The position numbers and the translations under genes were made by a program. Under the pieces are notes generated by a model. The model saw only the letters and a list, made by a program, of their open reading frames with translations. It did no database searches and was not told the DNA's origin. Positions 3,487-57,988 of a stretch of 64,000 nt of DNA are shown here, one piece after another (the stretch's first letter is position 1; the number at the start of each line of letters is the position of its first letter). This DNA is from a virus: the IMG/VR virus record IMGVR_UViG_3300047678_000431, positions 21,174 through 85,173 of that record. The stretch is one strand, 5' to 3'.

Positions 3487-3675
3487 CCCGTTTCGCTGCA
3501 TCGCTTCGACCTGTTCGCGGACGGTCGTATATTGCTCGCCGGGGCCGTATCGCCACACGTAGCCGGTGACGATCGACTTCTTGCACCGATAGATGTCGAA
3601 CTGACCGTCACGCTTCACGAATTTGCAACACTGATCGCTTGGGTATCGCGGCCCGGCGTCTTTCTCCGTCAGCAT
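3478..3675 (-). CDS. Hypothetical protein
   Basis: End of a coupled minus-strand chain. Confidence 0.55.
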   Translation of the reverse strand: MLTEKDAGPRYPSDQCCKFVKRDGQFDIYRCKKSIVTGYVWRYGPGEQYTTVREQVEAMQRNGLG

Positions 3676-11811: not shown

Positions 11812-13548
11812 ATGCCGTCATTGATTTCCTCAATACAAAAAAGCGTCGCGCGCATCCTCGCCGGTCCCGACATTAACATTCCGCGTAAAGGTGCGATCTC
11901 TCCGGTTTCAATCAAACAAGATCGTCAGTTTATGGACGGCGGTCGGATCGAGCCGCGCAACATCATTGCGCGCAATAACCTGCAATCGCTTGCCGAGCGT
12001 GATGATGTGATCGTCGCCCTTCGCCGCGTGTTGCGCAACGGTATCGGAAATCTCAAATGGCACATAGTCCCCGATATTGACGCAATCGAAGCCGACATCA
12101 AGCGATGGAAATCGACCGTTGCGCTGAACCTTGCCATGCCGGGCATGCACATGACGTTTCATCCGCAGGCGATGACGCATGAGTTTTATGCTGGTGCAAC
12201 CGGTGAGTTGCGCGATCTTCTCGTTTCTGAAGCTGAAACAGGTGCCGAGTTCGAAACCTCGACGCGATTGCATCAATTTTTCGAAAACATTCTCGCCGCG
12301 CATAGCGTGATCGCGGAAAGTCACGTCGCCGAGGTGAAGTCCCTCTTCGATAAACCGAACGCAAATGACACCTGGAGAAGTTTCATTTCGCGGGTTGTTG
12401 ATCAGTTGTCGCTCTTCGATGCCGCTGCAATCGTGAAGAATCCGATGATGAACGAAGATCGCATCGGTGAGATCTATCTTCTGCCCGGCGAAGACGTGCG
12501 CGTCTATCGTCGGCGCGATCTTCTCCAACCGATTCCGCCCTTTACGGCGTTTGATTGGTCGGTCAATGATCGGATCTTCGCGTATTTCAATGCGTTTGAA
12601 ATGTGCTATATTACCGCGAACCCGCAGCAGAACGGATACGGGAAACCGCCGCTTGAGGCGCTCGTACAACAAATGCTCGGATCAATTTCCGGTGATCAGT
12701 ATCTTCTCGAATTCTTCGCAAATAATAACATGCCCGCCGGTATCTTTGACCTCGGCCCGAACGTTGATCAAGGTGAACGAGACGCAGTCGAAACGCACGT
12801 GAACAATCAAGCGCGCAAAGGTTTGCGGCGCATTATGTTCGTGTCGAACATGGATGGCGTCAAGGGATTTATGCCCATGCCGCAGCAGCCGATGAAAGAT
12901 AATGACATCGTCAACATGTTCGACATGTGGACGAAGCGAAAAGCTGCCGTCTTTGGGCTTTCTCCGAATGACATCGGACATACGCAAGATATGCATCTTG
13001 CAAATGCGGATAATCAAGCCGAACTGACGCAATCTCGCGGCATTGATTCGATCGCCAAAGCAATCGAGAACGAACTCAATGTCCATATCGTCAAAGGTAC
13101 GATGTGGCGCCGTAATAATCCCGAAGACGTCAATGATCCGACCGGTATTCCGATGCCGGTCTTTCCCTTTCAAGACGTACGATTCGAATTTATTACCGGC
13201 GAGAAGGATGAGAACGCCGATCTCTCTGATCGTGATCTCAAACTTTGGGGCATGGGCGCCCTGTCGACAAACGAGATTCGCAAGTCGCATGGATTGCCGC
13301 CGGTCCCCGGCGGTGATACGCATGTCGTCAATCAGCAGGTGACGATGAAAGTCGATGACCTGCCGAATCTTCCCGCGCCGACGCAAATGGACACTGAGGT
13401 CCGCTTGCCCGATGGCCGCGAGCGTGATGAACGTCCAGGCGCAAACGCGCAGCAAAACGAGCAAAGACCGCCGACGCCGTCACCGGAACAGGCGGAAAAA
13501 AACCTTACCGCGTTAGCTCATAAGCTCGCGCAGATCGTCAAAGGGTGA
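11812..13548 (+). CDS. Portal protein
   Basis: GYGKPPLEAL, FANNNMPAG, AVFGLSPNDIG, STNEIRK..GLPPVPGGD (HK97-type portal motifs); AAGGAG RBS. Confidence 0.9.
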   Translation: MPSLISSIQKSVARILAGPDINIPRKGAISPVSIKQDRQFMDGGRIEPRNIIARNNLQSLAERDDVIVALRRVLRNGIGNLKWHIVPDIDAIEADIKRWKSTVALNLAMPGMHMTFHPQAMTHEFYAGATGELRDLLVSEAETGAEFETSTRLHQFFENILAAHSVIAESHVAEVKSLFDKPNANDTWRSFISRVVDQLSLFDAAAIVKNPMMNEDRIGEIYLLPGEDVRVYRRRDLLQPIPPFTAFDWSVNDRIFAYFNAFEMCYITANPQQNGYGKPPLEALVQQMLGSISGDQYLLEFFANNNMPAGIFDLGPNVDQGERDAVETHVNNQARKGLRRIMFVSNMDGVKGFMPMPQQPMKDNDIVNMFDMWTKRKAAVFGLSPNDIGHTQDMHLANADNQAELTQSRGIDSIAKAIENELNVHIVKGTMWRRNNPEDVNDPTGIPMPVFPFQDVRFEFITGEKDENADLSDRDLKLWGMGALSTNEIRKSHGLPPVPGGDTHVVNQQVTMKVDDLPNLPAPTQMDTEVRLPDGRERDERPGANAQQNEQRPPTPSPEQAEKNLTALAHKLAQIVKG

Positions 13549-24698: not shown

Positions 24699-24729
24699 AG
24701 GGGGCCGGGCAACCGGCTCCCTTTTCTTT
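24699..24729 (+). terminator. Intrinsic terminator after tube gene
   Basis: ggggccgg-gcaa-ccggctcc (GNRA loop) then cttttcttt. Confidence 0.75.
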
Positions 24730-38246: not shown

Positions 38247-38993
38247 ATGAGTATCATCACCGCGCATTGGTCTGCGACGTCGCCCGATGATTCGGGCGTG
38301 TATCACCGGCTCGGCGATTATCATGCTGAGTTCGGATTGATCAAACCGTTGTCAAACACGGTCTTGACGCATTGCCGAAATGCAGTCCACCCGGCCGATG
38401 TGCCGTGGAGTGATCTTTCACATATCTTCGCGGTTTGGAAGAATTACAATTTCGATACGGCGACATCATACGGGACGTGGATGTGGAATCACGATTTCCG
38501 TGATAATACTCCGAATATTGAAGTCGCCGCGTTGTGTATGGGTGGGTCGGATGTTTGCACGACCGATTTCGGCGCGCATCCGTTTACAAAGGCGCATGCG
38601 TGGATGATGGCCGGTGTCATTGCGCGGATCGCAAAACTCAAAGGCATTGATCCGATGCAATCATTCGAGGCGGTCAATGGGTACATGAACGGGCCGCTCT
38701 TTGCGGTTTCCACGCATGGCGAGCGTGCGTACCAAACGGAGAATATGCAAGTCGAGAACGCCGATCGTGGATACTCCGGGTATCGCGGATACGGCGCGTA
38801 TTCTGCCGACCCCGACATGCGATGGGATCTTGACGTCCTCGACGTTGCCGATCTCAAGGCGCTCGGAAGTTTTCAAACCGCATACGCTGCGACGAAATCT
38901 TCGGCGGCATGGCTACGCAACGCGGCCGCGTCGATTATTCACGCAAACTACACGGCCGACATGTGGGGCCTTGACGTGGCCGTCGCGCGTTAA
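38247..38993 (+). CDS. Endolysin, N-acetylmuramoyl-L-alanine amidase-like
   Basis: HWSA...YH...NT.NI..A.LCM...THGE...RWDL. Confidence 0.75.
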   Translation: MSIITAHWSATSPDDSGVYHRLGDYHAEFGLIKPLSNTVLTHCRNAVHPADVPWSDLSHIFAVWKNYNFDTATSYGTWMWNHDFRDNTPNIEVAALCMGGSDVCTTDFGAHPFTKAHAWMMAGVIARIAKLKGIDPMQSFEAVNGYMNGPLFAVSTHGERAYQTENMQVENADRGYSGYRGYGAYSADPDMRWDLDVLDVADLKALGSFQTAYAATKSSAAWLRNAAASIIHANYTADMWGLDVAVAR

Positions 38994-39268
38994 ACCTTCG
39001 AGCGATGATTCGCGAGCATGTCTGTGATGGCGTGCTCGATGAGTGTTTGCTTCTTTACCCCGGTCCGTTTGTAGAGGGCATCAAGCTCGAGCCAAACGGA
39101 TTCACTCAAACGCACGGACATGGGTACGGTGGCTTTTGGCCCCGTGCTTGTTTGCGTGCGTGCGTGCGTGCGTTCTTGTATGTGTGTTTTCGGACTCGTG
39201 GCGAGGTCTTCTAACGAGACAGCGCCGCTTGAGTTCTGGGCATGTTGACGGGACGCACGCGCGCTCAT
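38990..39268 (-). CDS. Ribbon-helix-helix DNA-binding protein (ParG/CopG-like)
   Basis: Disordered N-terminus then MSVRLSESVWLELDALYKRTGVKKQTLIEHAITDML; GGAG RBS; ATGA-coupled to ATPase. Confidence 0.8.
   Translation of the reverse strand: MSARASRQHAQNSSGAVSLEDLATSPKTHIQERTHARTQTSTGPKATVPMSVRLSESVWLELDALYKRTGVKKQTLIEHAITDMLANHRSKV
39143..39189. repeat. 4-bp-periodic TGCG array 2 (inside RHH gene)
   Basis: TGCT TGTT (TGCG)5 TTCT TGTA TGTG TGTT. Confidence 0.85.
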
Positions 39269-40800: not shown

Positions 40801-40850
40801 GAGCCGTGAGAAAACGCGTGATGACGTTGTTTTCTCACGGCTCTTTTTTT
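40801..40850 (+). terminator. Long-stem intrinsic terminator
   Basis: GAGCCGTGAGAAAAC / GTTTTCTCACGGCTC 15-bp stem then T7. Confidence 0.8.
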
Positions 40851-40893: not shown

Positions 40894-40922
40894 TTGATCT
40901 TACGTCATATGTTTGTTATACT
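40894..40922 (+). promoter_or_regulatory. Sigma70-type promoter of recombination/replication operon
   Basis: TTGATC-17 bp-TATACT with extended TG. Confidence 0.7.
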
Positions 40923-40979: not shown

Positions 40980-42326
40980 GTGGCGATCTCAGAACTTAAA
41001 GCCGTATCCGCGAAATCAGCGTGGGATCAAGCGGTTGCGTGGAAGGCCTCGGCGCCTCCGCAACTGCTTGCGCGATTCATCGAAAAGGCGACCGACGGAA
41101 AGGTCAAAGGCGATCAGCTTTTGCAACTTTTGGCCGAATATTTTCGGCTCGGTATAGCGCCCGAAACGCATTTCATCGTCGGCAATCTACGCGGGAAAGA
41201 CGAGAAGGCAAAGCTCGTCATCACGATCACGCTCAATGCGATGCTCGTGCTCGCCGAGCGCGATCCGAATTTCGGGTCGATTCAAGATGGCGAAGTCGAA
41301 TTTGAATCCGACGGCCTTGCGCCGAAATGGGCGACCGCCTACGTCCGGCGGAAAGACATCGCCGAGCCGTTTGTCGCTCGGTTGCTTTATCGCGAATATG
41401 TCGGCAAAGATTTCAACGGCAAAGTCTCCGGCGTGTGGCGTGACAAGCCCGTCTCGATGCTGTGCAAATGCGCCAAGGCGGCCGCGTTGCGTCTCGCGTA
41501 TCCGACGGCGCTCGCCGGAATCTTCATCCCCGAAGAACTCGAACGCGAGGCCGTCGACGCGGTGGATATGATCCGCGATACCTTCGCGCGCCACGAACAC
41601 GCGGGCGCCGTGGTCAACACGGGAACGGGTGAAGTCATCAAACGGGCCGAGGCCGTGCCGTCCGCGCAATCCGAAAAACCGCCAGTAGAAACGCCGAAGG
41701 ATTCTGATCCGGTACAAACACCCGCCGAGGCGGCAAAACCCGCGCCATCGCCAAAGGACGCGCCGGAAACGGCACCTGCGAAGCCTGCCGTGCCCCTGGT
41801 TTTCCGAGGCATCGACTCGCAAGATATGCGCGGCCCGCTTATCCGTAAGGCATACGAGCTAATGGGCGTGCCGATTGCCAAACAATCGCACGAGCAACAT
41901 CTAGCGGTCATCCGCCAGGTTTCGCACGCGATCGGTCGTCCCGATGGGGCGGTCCCGACAGAATGGGCGGATTTTGAACTCGCCGAGCTTCGCAAGTATG
42001 TCGATTACCGGACCAAAGCGCAATCTGCGATCGCGGCCGATTCGGTCAAGTCTGCGGAAGAACCGCCGAAAACCGAATCACGCTCAAAAACGCAATCTCG
42101 CCGCGACCCGCACGCAATGACGGCCGTGATGGCGCAGATGATCGAGCGCGACACGGAGATTTACGGCCTCGATGAACACACGATCGCCAATATGTGCAAA
42201 GATATATCAAATGGCGCCCTCTCCGATTGGCGAGAATTCTCTCGCGAGCAGGCGGCGCATCTTTTGGACACGATCCGCGCCTTCGCCGAATCGCGCGGTC
42301 TACAGAACAACCGACGGACGGGGTGA
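40980..42326 (+). CDS. RecT/Red-beta-like single-strand annealing protein
   Basis: AYVRRKD, YREY...WRDKPVSMLCKCAKAAALRLAYP...G.FIPEE. Confidence 0.85.
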   Translation: MAISELKAVSAKSAWDQAVAWKASAPPQLLARFIEKATDGKVKGDQLLQLLAEYFRLGIAPETHFIVGNLRGKDEKAKLVITITLNAMLVLAERDPNFGSIQDGEVEFESDGLAPKWATAYVRRKDIAEPFVARLLYREYVGKDFNGKVSGVWRDKPVSMLCKCAKAAALRLAYPTALAGIFIPEELEREAVDAVDMIRDTFARHEHAGAVVNTGTGEVIKRAEAVPSAQSEKPPVETPKDSDPVQTPAEAAKPAPSPKDAPETAPAKPAVPLVFRGIDSQDMRGPLIRKAYELMGVPIAKQSHEQHLAVIRQVSHAIGRPDGAVPTEWADFELAELRKYVDYRTKAQSAIAADSVKSAEEPPKTESRSKTQSRRDPHAMTAVMAQMIERDTEIYGLDEHTIANMCKDISNGALSDWREFSREQAAHLLDTIRAFAESRGLQNNRRTG

Positions 42327-42428
42327 TCGCCACGATCTAACCCTTCCCGGCCGTCGGTCAGCAAAGGCGTACTCTCTTCAAAGGGTGCGTTTTTTGCCAT
42401 CTGCGGGAAACTTTCTTCCCCGAAAGTC

Positions 42429-42458
42429 TTGCCGAAATCAACCCTTTTGCGTTACGAT
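42429..42458 (+). promoter_or_regulatory. Putative promoter for leader-rep transcript
   Basis: TTGCCG-18 bp-TACGAT. Confidence 0.5.
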
Positions 42459-42483
42459 TGCGCGTACACGTCCCAATCCAGGC

Positions 42484-42691
42484 AAAACAAAAGACCCCGG
42501 TGTACCAAGCCGGAGTCTTTTGCGGAAAACGTTGCTCCCTCTGGCGATTCGAAGCCGAAATTCTTCGAACCGTTGCCGAGAGCGATGGAGCCCGGAACCG
42601 GGACAAACAATCATCCATATAGCTTTTTTCGAGGAAACCCATATGATCGTTCGCCGTCGGCGCAGCGTCGCCGCTGCATTACCCGAGCGCC
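42484..42691 (-). ncRNA. Predicted antisense RNA to the rep leader
   Basis: Minus-strand promoter TTGCGT-17-TATCTT (42726-42698, extended TG); internal long hairpin; terminator hairpin 42522-42488 followed by TTTT. Confidence 0.5.
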
Positions 42692-42786
42692 ATCTACAAG
42701 ATACCATTTCGAGGCGCCGGACGCAAGAACTTTACAAAAATTTGCGCCTCCCCGCCCGGCAAGTAACCGGAGGGTCGCAGGCATGA
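42643..42786 (+). CDS. Leader peptide coupled to replication initiator (47 aa)
   Basis: GAGGA RBS; its TGA overlaps rep ATG (ATGA at 42783-42786). Confidence 0.55.
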   Translation: MIVRRRRSVAAALPERHLQDTISRRRTQELYKNLRLPARQVTGGSQA

Positions 42787-43784
42787 GCTACGGGACCTAT
42801 ACGGCCGCGATGCTTTCCATCGAACCGGCCGAAGCGCGACACATGGCGTTCACGCTCAATTTGTTCCGCAATCTTGAGACGGGGGAATGCTGGCCCTCTC
42901 AAGAGACGCTTGCCAAAACGGCCGCAATGCACCCCGCAAATGTGCGTCGGGCATTGCGGTCGCTTGAACATCAAAGAATCATCAAACGCGTCGGCGTGAG
43001 CAAATCTCGGACGACGATCTATGTGATCGACCCGATTTTTATTCATAGCCCCGGAACGCAAAGCCCCTCGATTGCCGCCTCGATCGAGACGGCTTCTCGC
43101 AAGCTTACGACTAAGAAGAAGACCCGATCACACCGATCGGTTGACCCGATCACACCGATCGGTTCAACCCGATCACACGGATCGGTATATACCGATCACA
43201 CGGATCGACAACAAGACGATAGACAAGACGATATGACAAGACGAAAGACAACCGGAGTTTTTGTCGCGGCGAAATCAGACGAGGCCGCCGTCGGAGACGT
43301 CGTCTCGTCGGTCGAAGAGATTGCGACAAAAGTCAAAAAAATCGCGAAGAAGAAACCCGAACGGACGTATCACCCCGAGGCATTCGGGATCGTCGATTTT
43401 TTTGCGACCCTTCGCGCCGAGCTTTTGCCGACGGCCGCCGTCGACCAAAAGTTTCGCTTCGCAACGCGCACCGTCGCCGACCGATTGCTCAAACGCGCCT
43501 CGGTCGCCGAGGTCAAGCAACGCATCTTGCGCATGCGGGCGAATATCCCGGATTCAAAGCCGAATCTTTTCGCGAGCCTTGCGCAACTCGAACACCAATG
43601 GGACCGGTGGGGGCCGGGCCGGGAAGAGGCCGCCCGCCTCGCCGGTTTTCAGGCCAAGCTTCCCGAGATCGCGCCGGTCGTCGCATCGGTTCCCGACGAC
43701 GTCCTTGCCGAGATTCGCGAGCGTAAGGCGGCAATGTGGTCGAGTGATCGGAAATCCGAGGCATCGAAGGCGGTGGCGGCGTAA
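42783..43784 (+). CDS. Replication initiator (HTH_36-type, lambda O-like)
   Basis: GECWPSQETLA..AAM....VRRALRSLE....I; internal iterons; followed by DnaC-like loader. Confidence 0.85.
   Translation: MSYGTYTAAMLSIEPAEARHMAFTLNLFRNLETGECWPSQETLAKTAAMHPANVRRALRSLEHQRIIKRVGVSKSRTTIYVIDPIFIHSPGTQSPSIAASIETASRKLTTKKKTRSHRSVDPITPIGSTRSHGSVYTDHTDRQQDDRQDDMTRRKTTGVFVAAKSDEAAVGDVVSSVEEIATKVKKIAKKKPERTYHPEAFGIVDFFATLRAELLPTAAVDQKFRFATRTVADRLLKRASVAEVKQRILRMRANIPDSKPNLFASLAQLEHQWDRWGPGREEAARLAGFQAKLPEIAPVVASVPDDVLAEIRERKAAMWSSDRKSEASKAVAA
43121..43250. repeat. Replication origin: four iterons plus A-rich repeats
   Basis: GACCCGATCACACCGATCGGTT exact twice (43121, 43143), two variants (43166, 43191), then ACAAGACGA three times. 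Confidence 0.8.
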
Positions 43785-44695
43785 TGGACGGGAACTTCAA
43801 GCCTTTGGGGGATTCTCTCGCTCGTGATCTTGGTGCGAAATTTAGCAAAACCCGCATGGTTCCGCGCGGTGTCAAGTGCGATGATTGCGGCGCCGAACTC
43901 GAAGAGCAACACGTCCCGGGCCTTAGCCGTGTCATTCCCGTGCCGTGCATTTGCGTTCGAAATCGCGTGACCGAAGCCGAAGAGATCCGCCGATTGAACC
44001 AGGCCGAGGCCGAGACGCTCGAACGATTGCGGACCCAAGGTGCGGCCCGTCGGGAACGCCTGAAATCCCTCGACCTGATGCCCGACATGATGTCGAAAAA
44101 ATGGACTTTCGAAACCTACGAGGTCGAGCCCGGCAATGCATTGGCCTTTGTCATGGCGGAAAATTTCGTCAACCAAACGTTGCGCGACCGCACGACCTAC
44201 GAGGTTCCCGGGTTCGGCCTCTATGGCGACCACGGCGTCGGGAAGTCGCATCTCACGACCGGCCTCGCGAAGATCCTGATCGAAAAGGGCATCGACGTCG
44301 TGCAGATTTACGAGTACGACATCCGGTCGGTCTTGAACCGTATCCGCAATGGGGAAATCAGCTTTTCCGAGGACGTCTTCGCACAAGACCTGATCTCGGT
44401 GCCGGTTCTCATCATCGAAGATTTCATGAAAAGCCGAGTCAAGAATGCGTCCGGCGCAAACCTCGAATACGTTCACGAGTTTCTCTTCCGTGTCGTACAA
44501 AAACGGATCATGAAAAGTCTCCCGATCATCGTCACGAGTAATCACTCGTACGAAGACCTCCGGGATGTGTATCTCAAGGGGCTCGAATTCGGCCCGGCGA
44601 TCCTCGATCGTTTTGCCGAGAGTTTCGGGTGCGACGAACGCCGGTGGTTACGGATCACGGCGGAAAAAAGCCATCGCCTGCATGGTGCGAAATGA
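43784..44695 (+). CDS. DnaC/IstB-like helicase loader ATPase
   Basis: CDDC...CIC zinc motif, GDHGVGKSHL, VLIIEDF, PIIVTSN, ILDRF. Confidence 0.9.
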   Translation: MDGNFKPLGDSLARDLGAKFSKTRMVPRGVKCDDCGAELEEQHVPGLSRVIPVPCICVRNRVTEAEEIRRLNQAEAETLERLRTQGAARRERLKSLDLMPDMMSKKWTFETYEVEPGNALAFVMAENFVNQTLRDRTTYEVPGFGLYGDHGVGKSHLTTGLAKILIEKGIDVVQIYEYDIRSVLNRIRNGEISFSEDVFAQDLISVPVLIIEDFMKSRVKNASGANLEYVHEFLFRVVQKRIMKSLPIIVTSNHSYEDLRDVYLKGLEFGPAILDRFAESFGCDERRWLRITAEKSHRLHGAK

Positions 44696-54532: not shown

Positions 54533-54885
54533 AGAGAAAGCCTCACAAAAAAGGGCGTTCCGTGCTGTGCGCACGGGATCACCCTGTTTGCATCGGCTGA
54601 CGTCTTGAAAACTTTACAATGCGAGGGTTGCAATTTCCGCTTTCACCCGCTCGATCGTATCCCACGCCTGGCGGTATTCCTCATCTGTCGGGTTGCATTC
54701 GGCTTTTGCGTAGGCGCTCATAAGTTCGTTTTCAAGTGCGCGTTTGCGGTCTTTTCCGTCTTGCATGATCGTACCCCTTGGAAAAAGGCGTTTGGTTAGC
54801 TGGTCCCCTTATTTTACCCGAACTGCCTAGAAGAGTCGACGCGGCGATGGTAAAGAATCACCGAGGCAACCCCTAAAGAGGGCAC

Positions 54886-57126: not shown

Positions 57127-57334
57127 GATCTCGCACCTTGCCCGCATTGCGCCCGCGCCGTCACCGGCTTGCGGGTGTTTTGTTTTTGGAGTGCTCGCAT
57201 GTTATCGACTACCCTGATGCTCGTCTTACACATCCTGAATCCGAATGCCCCACCGATCGCCGATATGGTCGCGGTCGAAATGGCCCGTTCCACTGAACTC
57301 GCCGTCTATATGAGCGAGCCGAGGAGTTTCACAG

Positions 57335-57988
57335 ATGACCCCCGAGACGCCGAAGCCCCCAAAATCAACAAAGTCGCCTAAAACCGAAAAATCCGGCGAT
57401 TCTCCGCAACCTACGCGCGCGCGCACGCGCGAGGGTGAGAAGAATCAAGAACGCACGCACGCACGCACGCAAACACGCAAACAATCAATTCCCCCTGATG
57501 AGGATGCCGATCGACGAAAGTCGCTTTCCGGCCCGATTCCGCTCGACTCGCCGCTCAAAGAACCCTACATCGAAAAATCTTACGACATGTACGTCCGCAA
57601 GCAGATGAGCTTCTCGCGCATCGCCGAGGCGCTCGGTATCAACCGAGACACGGTGTCGGCGTATGTGAAGTTCGAGTCGACCCGTCGCAGTGAAGAAAAC
57701 GCCGCTATGCGCACGGCCAACATCGAGCGCAACCTCGAGTCGCTCGCGATCGTGGAGGAGACAAACATCTCCCGTATGTTCGCCGCCGACCGCCGGGGTG
57801 ACGAGGCGCGATACGTCCTCGAAGCGTGCAAGCAGCGGATGATGCTACTCGGCCTCGATGAGGGCGTCGTGATCAAGGATGAACGCAAACATGCAAACCC
57901 CTTCGAAGGACTCGGGAGAGACGAACTCGTCGCCATCCTCAAAAACGCCCCAACCGGCGGCGCATTCCACCGACCCGACTCACGATGA
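57335..57988 (+). CDS. Terminase small subunit (HTH type)
   Basis: MSFSRIAEALGINRDTVSAYV, RMMLLGLD; upstream of TerL; GAGGAG RBS. Confidence 0.7.
   Translation: MTPETPKPPKSTKSPKTEKSGDSPQPTRARTREGEKNQERTHARTQTRKQSIPPDEDADRRKSLSGPIPLDSPLKEPYIEKSYDMYVRKQMSFSRIAEALGINRDTVSAYVKFESTRRSEENAAMRTANIERNLESLAIVEETNISRMFAADRRGDEARYVLEACKQRMMLLGLDEGVVIKDERKHANPFEGLGRDELVAILKNAPTGGAFHRPDSR
57446..57485. repeat. 4-bp-periodic TGCG array 5 (inside terS)
   Basis: CAAGAACGCACGCACGCACGCACGCAAACA, 30 bp identical to the reverse complement of 39149-39178. Confidence 0.85.

Follow-up and report, generated by a model that had tools for sequence, protein, structure and literature searches.

Introduction

Antisense control beside or over replication initiator genes is already known from plasmids, from phage lambda and from phage-plasmids. 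In lambda, a leftward promoter (pO) and the antisense oop RNA are found at the start of the O gene; the target of oop is the 3' end of cII, loss of pO raises read-through from pR and impairs replication, and little depends on how much oop RNA is present (PMC3985674). In plasmid R1 the order is an upstream promoter, an upstream gene, an intergenic region with a second promoter and the antisense gene, a short open reading frame (ORF) ending at the rep start, and rep itself (PMC5717011). The IncI1 and IncI2 plasmids combine an antisense RNA with a leader peptide, which in IncI2 are a 108-nt RNA and the 19-aa RepR overlapping the repA start, and IncI2 control works without a pseudoknot (PMC8053102), in contrast to the Inc RNA-repY-repZ system of IncI1/IncB, which uses one. 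A phage-plasmid carrying a true IncFII CopA/RepA module has also been described (bioRxiv 10.64898/2026.08.19.745698). Here we describe a candidate antisense locus in a 64,000-nt stretch of viral DNA (hereafter the window), which corresponds to bases 21174-85173 of the IMG/VR virus record IMGVR_UViG_3300047678_000431. The locus is a 456-nt gap between a RecT/Bet-like gene and an O-like replication initiator gene (rep).

The virus record is complete (85,173 bp with direct terminal repeats) and is present in several moss metagenomes. Coordinates are window positions unless marked "genome". The best explanation for the features of the gap is a non-coding cis-antisense RNA that would throttle rep, a reading drawn from the sequence in which we place middling confidence. 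With belief and doubt about equally balanced, we further see in it a device that throttles or times a replicon of the lambda type, and no evidence of a plasmid prophage. An earlier note on this DNA had listed a forward promoter-like site, a leader ORF, a reverse promoter-like site and two hairpins, and all of them are present where it placed them.

Fold and polarity of the predicted antisense RNA

The predicted non-coding antisense RNA (42484-42691, minus strand) is ~207 nt long and contains four hairpins. Read from 42691 to 42484, the minus strand has a minimum free energy (MFE) of -92.5 kcal/mol (z -4.72), and none of 200 shuffled sequences was as stable, whereas the plus strand of the same interval reaches -71.5 kcal/mol (z -2.79). 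The difference of 21 kcal/mol in favour of the minus strand exceeds by ~10 kcal/mol what base composition would give. A regression of MFE against dinucleotide content, based on 2180 window-strands from across the genome, placed the minus strand 8th and the plus strand 107th in composition-adjusted stability. Ensemble diversity on the minus strand was 14.4 against 50.5 +/- 16 in shuffles, a value reached by 0.7% of them, and on the plus strand it was ordinary (53 against 47 in shuffles). The structure of the antisense interval exceeds chance. A minus-strand unit of this size, covering the ribosome-binding site and start codon of the leader ORF, had been predicted in the earlier note; polarity, stability and fold all favour the minus strand and support that prediction.

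The largest strand asymmetries in folding were found in other regions (genome ~14.9-15.4 kb, and window ~38990-39150 and ~57300-57500), with up to 60 kcal/mol per 208 nt; these are probably repeat artefacts and not RNA genes, and they were left out of the comparisons.

At the 3' end of the unit, 207 nt downstream of the predicted antisense start site, is a predicted intrinsic terminator (42484-42523, minus strand), composed of a core stem (42517-42493), an extended stem (42523-42487) and a U tract (42492-42484). Read on the minus strand, the hairpin at 42487-42523 forms 14 continuous pairs and is followed by UUUUGUUUU; its plus-strand form is interrupted by a C-A mismatch and is followed by UUUUGCGG, so the claim that this hairpin pairs better on the minus strand was borne out. 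Terminators were scored with the d'Aubenton-Carafa d-score, with energies from ViennaRNA, and the values should be read as a rough yardstick. For the hairpin, the minus strand gave +8.4 and the plus strand -19.3. The clear plus-strand terminators of this phage have values of +1.8 to +42 when scored in their own orientation and negative values in the reverse orientation, and only seven minus-strand terminators with d>0 were found in 85 kb, the antisense terminator among them. The polarity of the terminator also exceeds chance. Elsewhere, the plus strand carries two exact copies of a GC-rich terminator hairpin of 22 nt (GGGGGCCGGGCAACCGGCUCCC, with a U-run), at window 24700-24721 and genome ~13,264-13,285.

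The 5' domain of the predicted RNA (42587-42691, minus strand) consists of a closing helix, a hairpin with a GCGA tetraloop (42662-42677) and a long hairpin (42602-42655), and its stability is -42.7 kcal/mol on the minus strand against -27.1 kcal/mol on the plus strand. In the predicted structure, the apical loop of the longest hairpin, CCUCGAAA (42627-42634), is the anti-Shine-Dalgarno sequence of the leader ORF.

No complete ORF was found within 42484-42691 on the minus strand, and there is no minus-strand gene nearby. A minus-strand protein gene was considered and rejected, as the ORFs at 42358-42642, 42438-42707 and 42452-42610 start outside the predicted transcript or cross the terminator; the first of these, the one that was scanned, matched no PHROG family.

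Between the terminator and the 5' domain is the middle hairpin (42534-42583, minus strand; loop AAUUUCGG), the long imperfect hairpin of the earlier note, which was confirmed on both strands (-27.4 kcal/mol minus, -25.7 kcal/mol plus). It holds a perfect palindrome, TTCGAAG-N8-CTTCGAA (42548-42569). A repeated operator at this position was rejected, as the palindrome occurs once in the window. Such a perfect palindrome raises the question of whether the locus acts as DNA, that is, whether the inverted repeats are hairpins for displaced-strand initiation or priming near the origin, or palindromes bound by a protein. The antisense region is 430-640 bp from the iterons of the putative origin, and G-T pairs would favour one DNA strand just as G-U pairs favour one RNA strand. 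However, the palindrome is unique, a search of the leader found neither an iteron copy nor a DnaA box, and neither the U-tract nor the promoter-like site nor the anti-Shine-Dalgarno loop would have a role. We consider a DNA-level element very improbable.

Promoter-like sites in the gap

Promoter-like sites were scored at every position (170,274) with a sigma-70 weight matrix that uses the base frequencies of the classical compilations, as a rough yardstick; the consensus is that of E. coli sigma-70, which may not be that of the host. The candidate antisense promoter (42698-42742, minus strand) is composed of a -35 box TTGCGT (42726-42721), a 17-nt spacer, a TG at 42706-42705 and a -10 box TATCTT (42703-42698), giving TGG-TATCTT. 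Its predicted start is ~42691 and the site is found 57-85 nt ahead of the rep ATG. With 10.0 bits it ranked 42nd of 170,274, and it is by far the best minus-strand site in 42523-43300. An UP-element-like tract (42727-42742) abuts the -35 box, with 13 A/T in 16 positions, a content seen in 0.3% of the 16-nt windows of the genome.

The score of the antisense site is within the range of five repeated early promoters of this phage (genome 1-6 kb, minus strand; 7.6-11.0 bits, ranks 22 to 261). These are near-identical and leftward, with TTGC-type -35 boxes, 17-18-nt spacers and extended -10 boxes of the TGA-GATAAT type, and each is enclosed in the inverted repeat GCCTCTGTGA / TCACAGAGGC. A copy of this operator half-site was also found at window 54867, at a leftward promoter (~54816-54870) heading a 50-aa gene (54614-54766, leftward), which is followed by a strong terminator (~54553-54585).

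On the plus strand, a candidate forward promoter (42429-42458) has TTGCCG (42429-42434), an 18-nt spacer and TACGAT (42453-42458), with 8 of 12 matches to the sigma-70 consensus and a start at ~42465. It scored 9.0 bits (rank 100 of 170,274), a level reached about once per 1.7 kb, and its -35 box is of the TTGC type, as in the repeated early promoters. Matches of its class are mostly noise, with 26 seen and 16.7 in shuffles. Taken alone, the promoter matches exceed chance only weakly.

Proposed control of rep

Upstream of rep, a 47-codon ORF (42643-42786, plus strand), here called the leader, is preceded by a Shine-Dalgarno sequence GAGG(A) at 42631-42635, 8 nt ahead of its ATG, and it ends in a TGA that shares bases with the rep ATG at 42783 (ATGA). 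In the proposed circuit, the extended -10 promoter at 42726-42698 would drive leftward synthesis of an RNA of ~207 nt, which would end at the terminator at 42523-42484. This RNA would be able to pair along its full length with the 5' leader of the rep mRNA, covering nearly all of the untranslated leader produced from the candidate forward promoter, and also the ribosome-binding site, the start codon and the first 16 codons of the 47-codon ORF. The long hairpin would show an anti-Shine-Dalgarno CCUC in its apical loop, where pairing would be expected to start and then spread. Once paired in this way, the upstream ORF would not be translated, and the duplex would probably become open to RNase III, so that less initiator would be made, and less of the helicase loader coupled behind it. 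Because the antisense RNA would be encoded by the same DNA as rep, its level would follow genome dosage, and the circuit could act as a negative feedback on replication initiation. The analysis establishes the sequence features themselves, the minus-strand bias in stability, fold definition and terminator polarity, and the type of replicon. We infer the firing of the promoter, the accumulation of the RNA, the repression and the dependence of rep on translation of the upstream ORF.

Evidence weighed against the antisense reading

Several observations weigh against this circuit. The earlier note had called the reverse promoter strong; TTGCGT, the 17-nt spacing, TATCTT and the extended TG are present as described, but the word overstates a site with 7 of 12 matches to the E. 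coli consensus, which may not be that of the host. A consensus scan at a threshold of 9 of 12 listed no promoter, because the antisense site matches at only 7. Sites of this grade are expected in ~8% of random 340-nt stretches, and units composed of a promoter followed by a terminator are found genome-wide at about the chance rate (four against ~3.5 expected), so the antisense promoter adds only moderate weight. At least one of the other three units corresponds to a genuine small gene read leftward, which has an operator half-site.

The codon score of the leader ORF was -0.04, with coding pieces at 0.27 +/- 0.14 and off-frame pieces at -0.44 +/- 0.21, so that its coding potential is ambiguous, and it matched no Pfam or PHROG family. 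The rep gene has its own Shine-Dalgarno sequence, GGAGG (42769-42773), at a good spacing of 9 nt (42774-42782) ahead of the ATG. This GGAGG is predicted to be mostly paired (probability of being unpaired 0.13-0.25), with CCCUC (42538-42542) or locally; its partners shift with the transcript that is modelled, and the local fold is at the level of shuffled sequences (z ~0). Given a ribosome-binding site of its own, masking at shuffle level and unstable partners, obligatory coupling of rep to the leader is unsupported. An ATGA-type overlap is also found at the junction between rep and the loader gene, suggesting that such overlaps are normal operon packing and no specific sign of regulatory coupling.

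The 8-nt sequence CCCUCUGG (42539-42546), in the antisense target region, is complementary to CCGGAGGG (42767-42774), in the rep Shine-Dalgarno region 230 nt downstream, and CCCUCUGG is the chief partner of the rep ribosome-binding site (P ~0.5) when the transcript from the forward promoter is modelled. In this model the pairing between 42539-42546 and 42767-42774 would mask, and not activate, the rep ribosome-binding site, and if it is real, antisense binding could unmask rep instead of repressing it.

In blastn searches against phages and plasmids no relative was found, and tblastn of Rep against phages found none; tblastn of the loader gave only matches of at most 31% identity, in phages of Firmicutes. 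Scans of IMG/VR with Rep, the loader, RecT and the helicase gave no usable relative, a search of 5.8 billion proteins returned the query itself only, and scans of metagenome and genome contigs gave distant helix-turn-helix (HTH)-domain loci only, or nothing. A phmmer search of 1.8 billion representatives found one full-architecture Rep homologue (P0002, ~30% identity), together with N-terminal HTH matches. The iteron 17-mer of the putative origin had five single matches in IMG/VR, none with Rep similarity. Of the public runs listed as containing the stretch, none is of RNA; it is contained in eight moss-metagenome DNA runs, and the contigs matching at >=99%, from four of these runs, are all identical, so there is no natural variation for use. 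In the collections searched there are no relatives close enough for alignment.

Among 27 non-redundant distant HTH_36 rep loci, only one has a minus-strand terminator within 450 nt upstream, so loci of this kind do not carry the arrangement as a matter of course. The best of the distant N-terminal homologues (L003 3333-3911) has a rep-like gene that comes after a gene for a 71-aa Cro/YdaS-like HTH protein, a GC-rich hairpin (~3600-3628) whose U-tract is better on the minus strand, and a purine-rich leader of ~280 nt, a layout that loosely resembles that of lambda (cro, terminator, O).

The earlier note had proposed a search of Rfam for C4, CopA and ctRNA families. Over the 84 kb scanned (window plus genome 1-20000), no family reached its gathering score, and this includes RNAs of the P1 C4 and P4 CI types. 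The best minus-strand match was ctRNA_p42d, with 15.3 bits against a gathering score of 50 and E=8; at this score, and with the match confined to the terminator hairpin, the predicted RNA is not a member of the repABC ctRNA family (RF00489).

Many of these observations would fit an alternative in which there is no antisense RNA, the hairpins belong to a plus-strand intercistronic spacer between recT and rep, and the reverse promoter is a chance match. The hairpins would then be an mRNA-stabilising or processing structure, or a leaky attenuator like lambda tR1, and the 47-codon ORF would be an ordinary small first cistron or untranslated. Apart from the modest match of the reverse promoter, the chance rate of promoter-terminator units and the routine stop/start overlaps of this operon, the alternative draws on the strongest promoter-like site of the genome, which precedes recT, so that rep could be read without local promoters, and on the plus strand, which also beats its shuffles (z -2.8 to -3.2). 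The strand comparisons go the other way: the d-score of the hairpin is strongly negative on the plus strand, a well-defined fold is found on the minus strand only, and the stability advantage of the minus strand is in part independent of base composition. If the forward promoter is real, moreover, a plus-strand terminator 25-55 nt past its start makes little sense. We regard a plain intercistronic spacer as somewhat unlikely, and retain the antisense RNA as the preferred reading.

The replicon and neighbouring genes

The rep gene (42783-43784, plus strand) encodes a predicted replication initiator of 333 aa with an N-terminal winged HTH (Pfam HTH_36; PHROG "replication initiation O-like", E=4e-7). 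Its stop is overlapped by the start of a gene for a DnaC-like helicase loader (43784-44695, plus strand), which matched Pfam IstB_IS21 / Bac_DnaA and the DnaC-like loader family PHROG_50 (E=2e-29). A putative origin within rep (43121-43251) is composed of four 22-23-bp iterons (43121-43208) followed by three A-rich 12-13-bp repeats (43211-43251), and these sequences encode the linker of Rep. The iteron core is CCGATCACAC[C/G]GATCGG, which is near-palindromic through GATC half-sites, and an inverted partial copy was found at 43015-43029. An iteron search gave six matches against 1.2 expected, with all four good matches inside rep (43121-43208). On the basis of the O-like HTH_36 initiator, the iterons and A-rich tract within the gene, and the DnaC-like loader, the assignment to a lambda-O / DnaC-type replicon, already made in the earlier note, is well founded. 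The homologue P0002 likewise has a peptide repeat in its linker, and the location of the origin within the gene therefore appears to be a trait of a small family formed by Rep and P0002.

A replicon of the lambda type, with iterons in an O-like gene and a loader downstream, invites a lambda-like explanation, in which a real leftward promoter would work mainly by convergent transcription and the RNA would be secondary. Such a promoter would damp rightward transcription into rep and the origin, tuning the transcriptional activation of the iteron origin. The position and orientation of the candidate antisense promoter are those of lambda pO, at the start of O and facing pR (PMC3985674), and a strong ribosome-binding site of its own for rep would be in keeping with control at the level of transcription. 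However, interference by itself would not call for a 207-nt RNA with a strong, unique fold and an anti-Shine-Dalgarno sequence in an apical loop, and oop targets the 3' end of cII, whereas the RNA predicted here would cover the 5' end of the upstream ORF together with its ribosome-binding site, and a cII-like gene is absent. Convergent transcription as the main function seems improbable to us, and the throttling RNA is kept as the favoured explanation.

Upstream of the gap is the gene for a RecT/Bet-like single-strand annealing protein (40980-42326, plus strand; Pfam RecT, E=1e-12; PHROG Bet-like/RecT-like families, E=1e-13), the upstream cistron. The promoter-like site ahead of it (40894-40922, plus strand) has TTGATC, a 17-nt spacer and TGt-TATACT, and with 15.0 bits it is the top sigma-70 score in the 85-kb genome (rank 1 of 170,274), suggesting that it is likely the main promoter of a recT-leader-rep-loader operon. 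It begins ~45 nt past a very strong plus-strand terminator (40803-40849; d-score +14), with a stem at 40803-40841 of ~-26 kcal/mol followed by a U-run, and to judge from their sequences the two elements together mark the start of the recT-rep-loader operon. A GATC-N5-GATC sequence (42326-42338) overlaps the recT stop, and its two GATCs are spaced as they are in each iteron; it could be a weak Rep site or a chance occurrence.

Lifestyle

Known-family searches of the complete 85-kb genome found no tyrosine or serine recombinase, no rve transposase, no ParB (ParB_N), no ParA-type ATPase (AAA_31, CbiA-type) and no S24 peptidase domain, although a partition system of an unconventional kind may have escaped them. 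Two predicted regulators were found outside the window: an XRE-type HTH_3 protein (E=8e-13; genome 18887-19048; L046 819-1307, minus strand) and a LuxR/GerE-type HTH protein (L046 2259-2537, plus strand), both of which are candidate regulators of the repeated operators.

The earlier note had gone on to propose a plasmid prophage state without a CI repressor. This step was left unsupported, as there are no Par or integrase families, there is an XRE gene together with operator-bearing promoters, and lambda offers a precedent: a leftward promoter and antisense RNA at the O start are found there, so the layout needs no plasmid lifestyle. A stronger version would be that an R1/IncI-style circuit was independently assembled on a lambda-O-type replicon with iterons in the gene, with a dosage-sensing antisense RNA, an obligatory leader peptide and a low-copy extrachromosomal prophage without known partition or integration genes. 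We consider this a long shot, and caution that such a layout alone is no indicator of a plasmid lifestyle.

Comparison with known systems

If the RNA is real, RNA-based control of initiator dosage would extend past plasmid-type replicons and lambda oop, and would turn up again in environmental phages with O-like replicons, in an unrelated sequence that is longer and forms four hairpins. The locus would also offer a small testable module (~400 bp plus a rep fusion) for the antisense timing or limiting of phage replication. Its practical value at present is modest, as a well-supported annotation hypothesis in an orphan phage.

Among plasmids, R1 (CopA/CopT/tap/repA) shares the gene layout set out in the introduction, with an antisense RNA that here would act on translation of a short ORF, and with the end of that ORF overlapping the rep start (42643-42786, with TGA over ATG at 42783). 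The differences are that the initiator here is HTH_36/O-like and not an IncFII RepA, that the origin is inside rep, and that in the 84 kb scanned neither CopA nor any other Rfam family reached its gathering score. CopA is ~90 nt long with two hairpins, whereas the RNA predicted here is ~207 nt long with four hairpins and is located directly over a ribosome-binding site.

The IncI1/IncB/IncI2 systems are similar in having an antisense RNA (here predicted) in the rep leader and a leader ORF that overlaps the rep start codon, but the replicon here is unrelated, and no pseudoknot is evident in the rep leader, although no search aimed at pseudoknots was made. The described phage-plasmid differs in having a plasmid-type replicon, which is not the case here. 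The repABC ctRNA (RF00489) is comparable as a short counter-transcript (here predicted) upstream of an initiator gene with an intrinsic terminator at its end.

The closest positional precedent is the pO/oop/tO region of lambda, as far as the analogy goes. In both cases an O-like initiator with iterons in its gene adjoins a helicase loader, a leftward promoter (here a candidate) is found just ahead of the initiator, convergent with the rightward early transcript, and a short non-coding RNA (here predicted) ends at an intrinsic terminator. The oop RNA is 77 nt long and overlaps the 3' end of cII, whereas the ~207 nt of the RNA predicted here extend over the 5' leader, the ribosome-binding site and the beginning of a 47-codon ORF. 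This upstream ORF matches no Pfam or PHROG family, and there is no gene resembling cII. Compared with all of these systems, the new part would be the combination of an O-type replicon that has its origin in the initiator gene with a long four-hairpin RNA over the ribosome-binding site of an overlapping upstream ORF.

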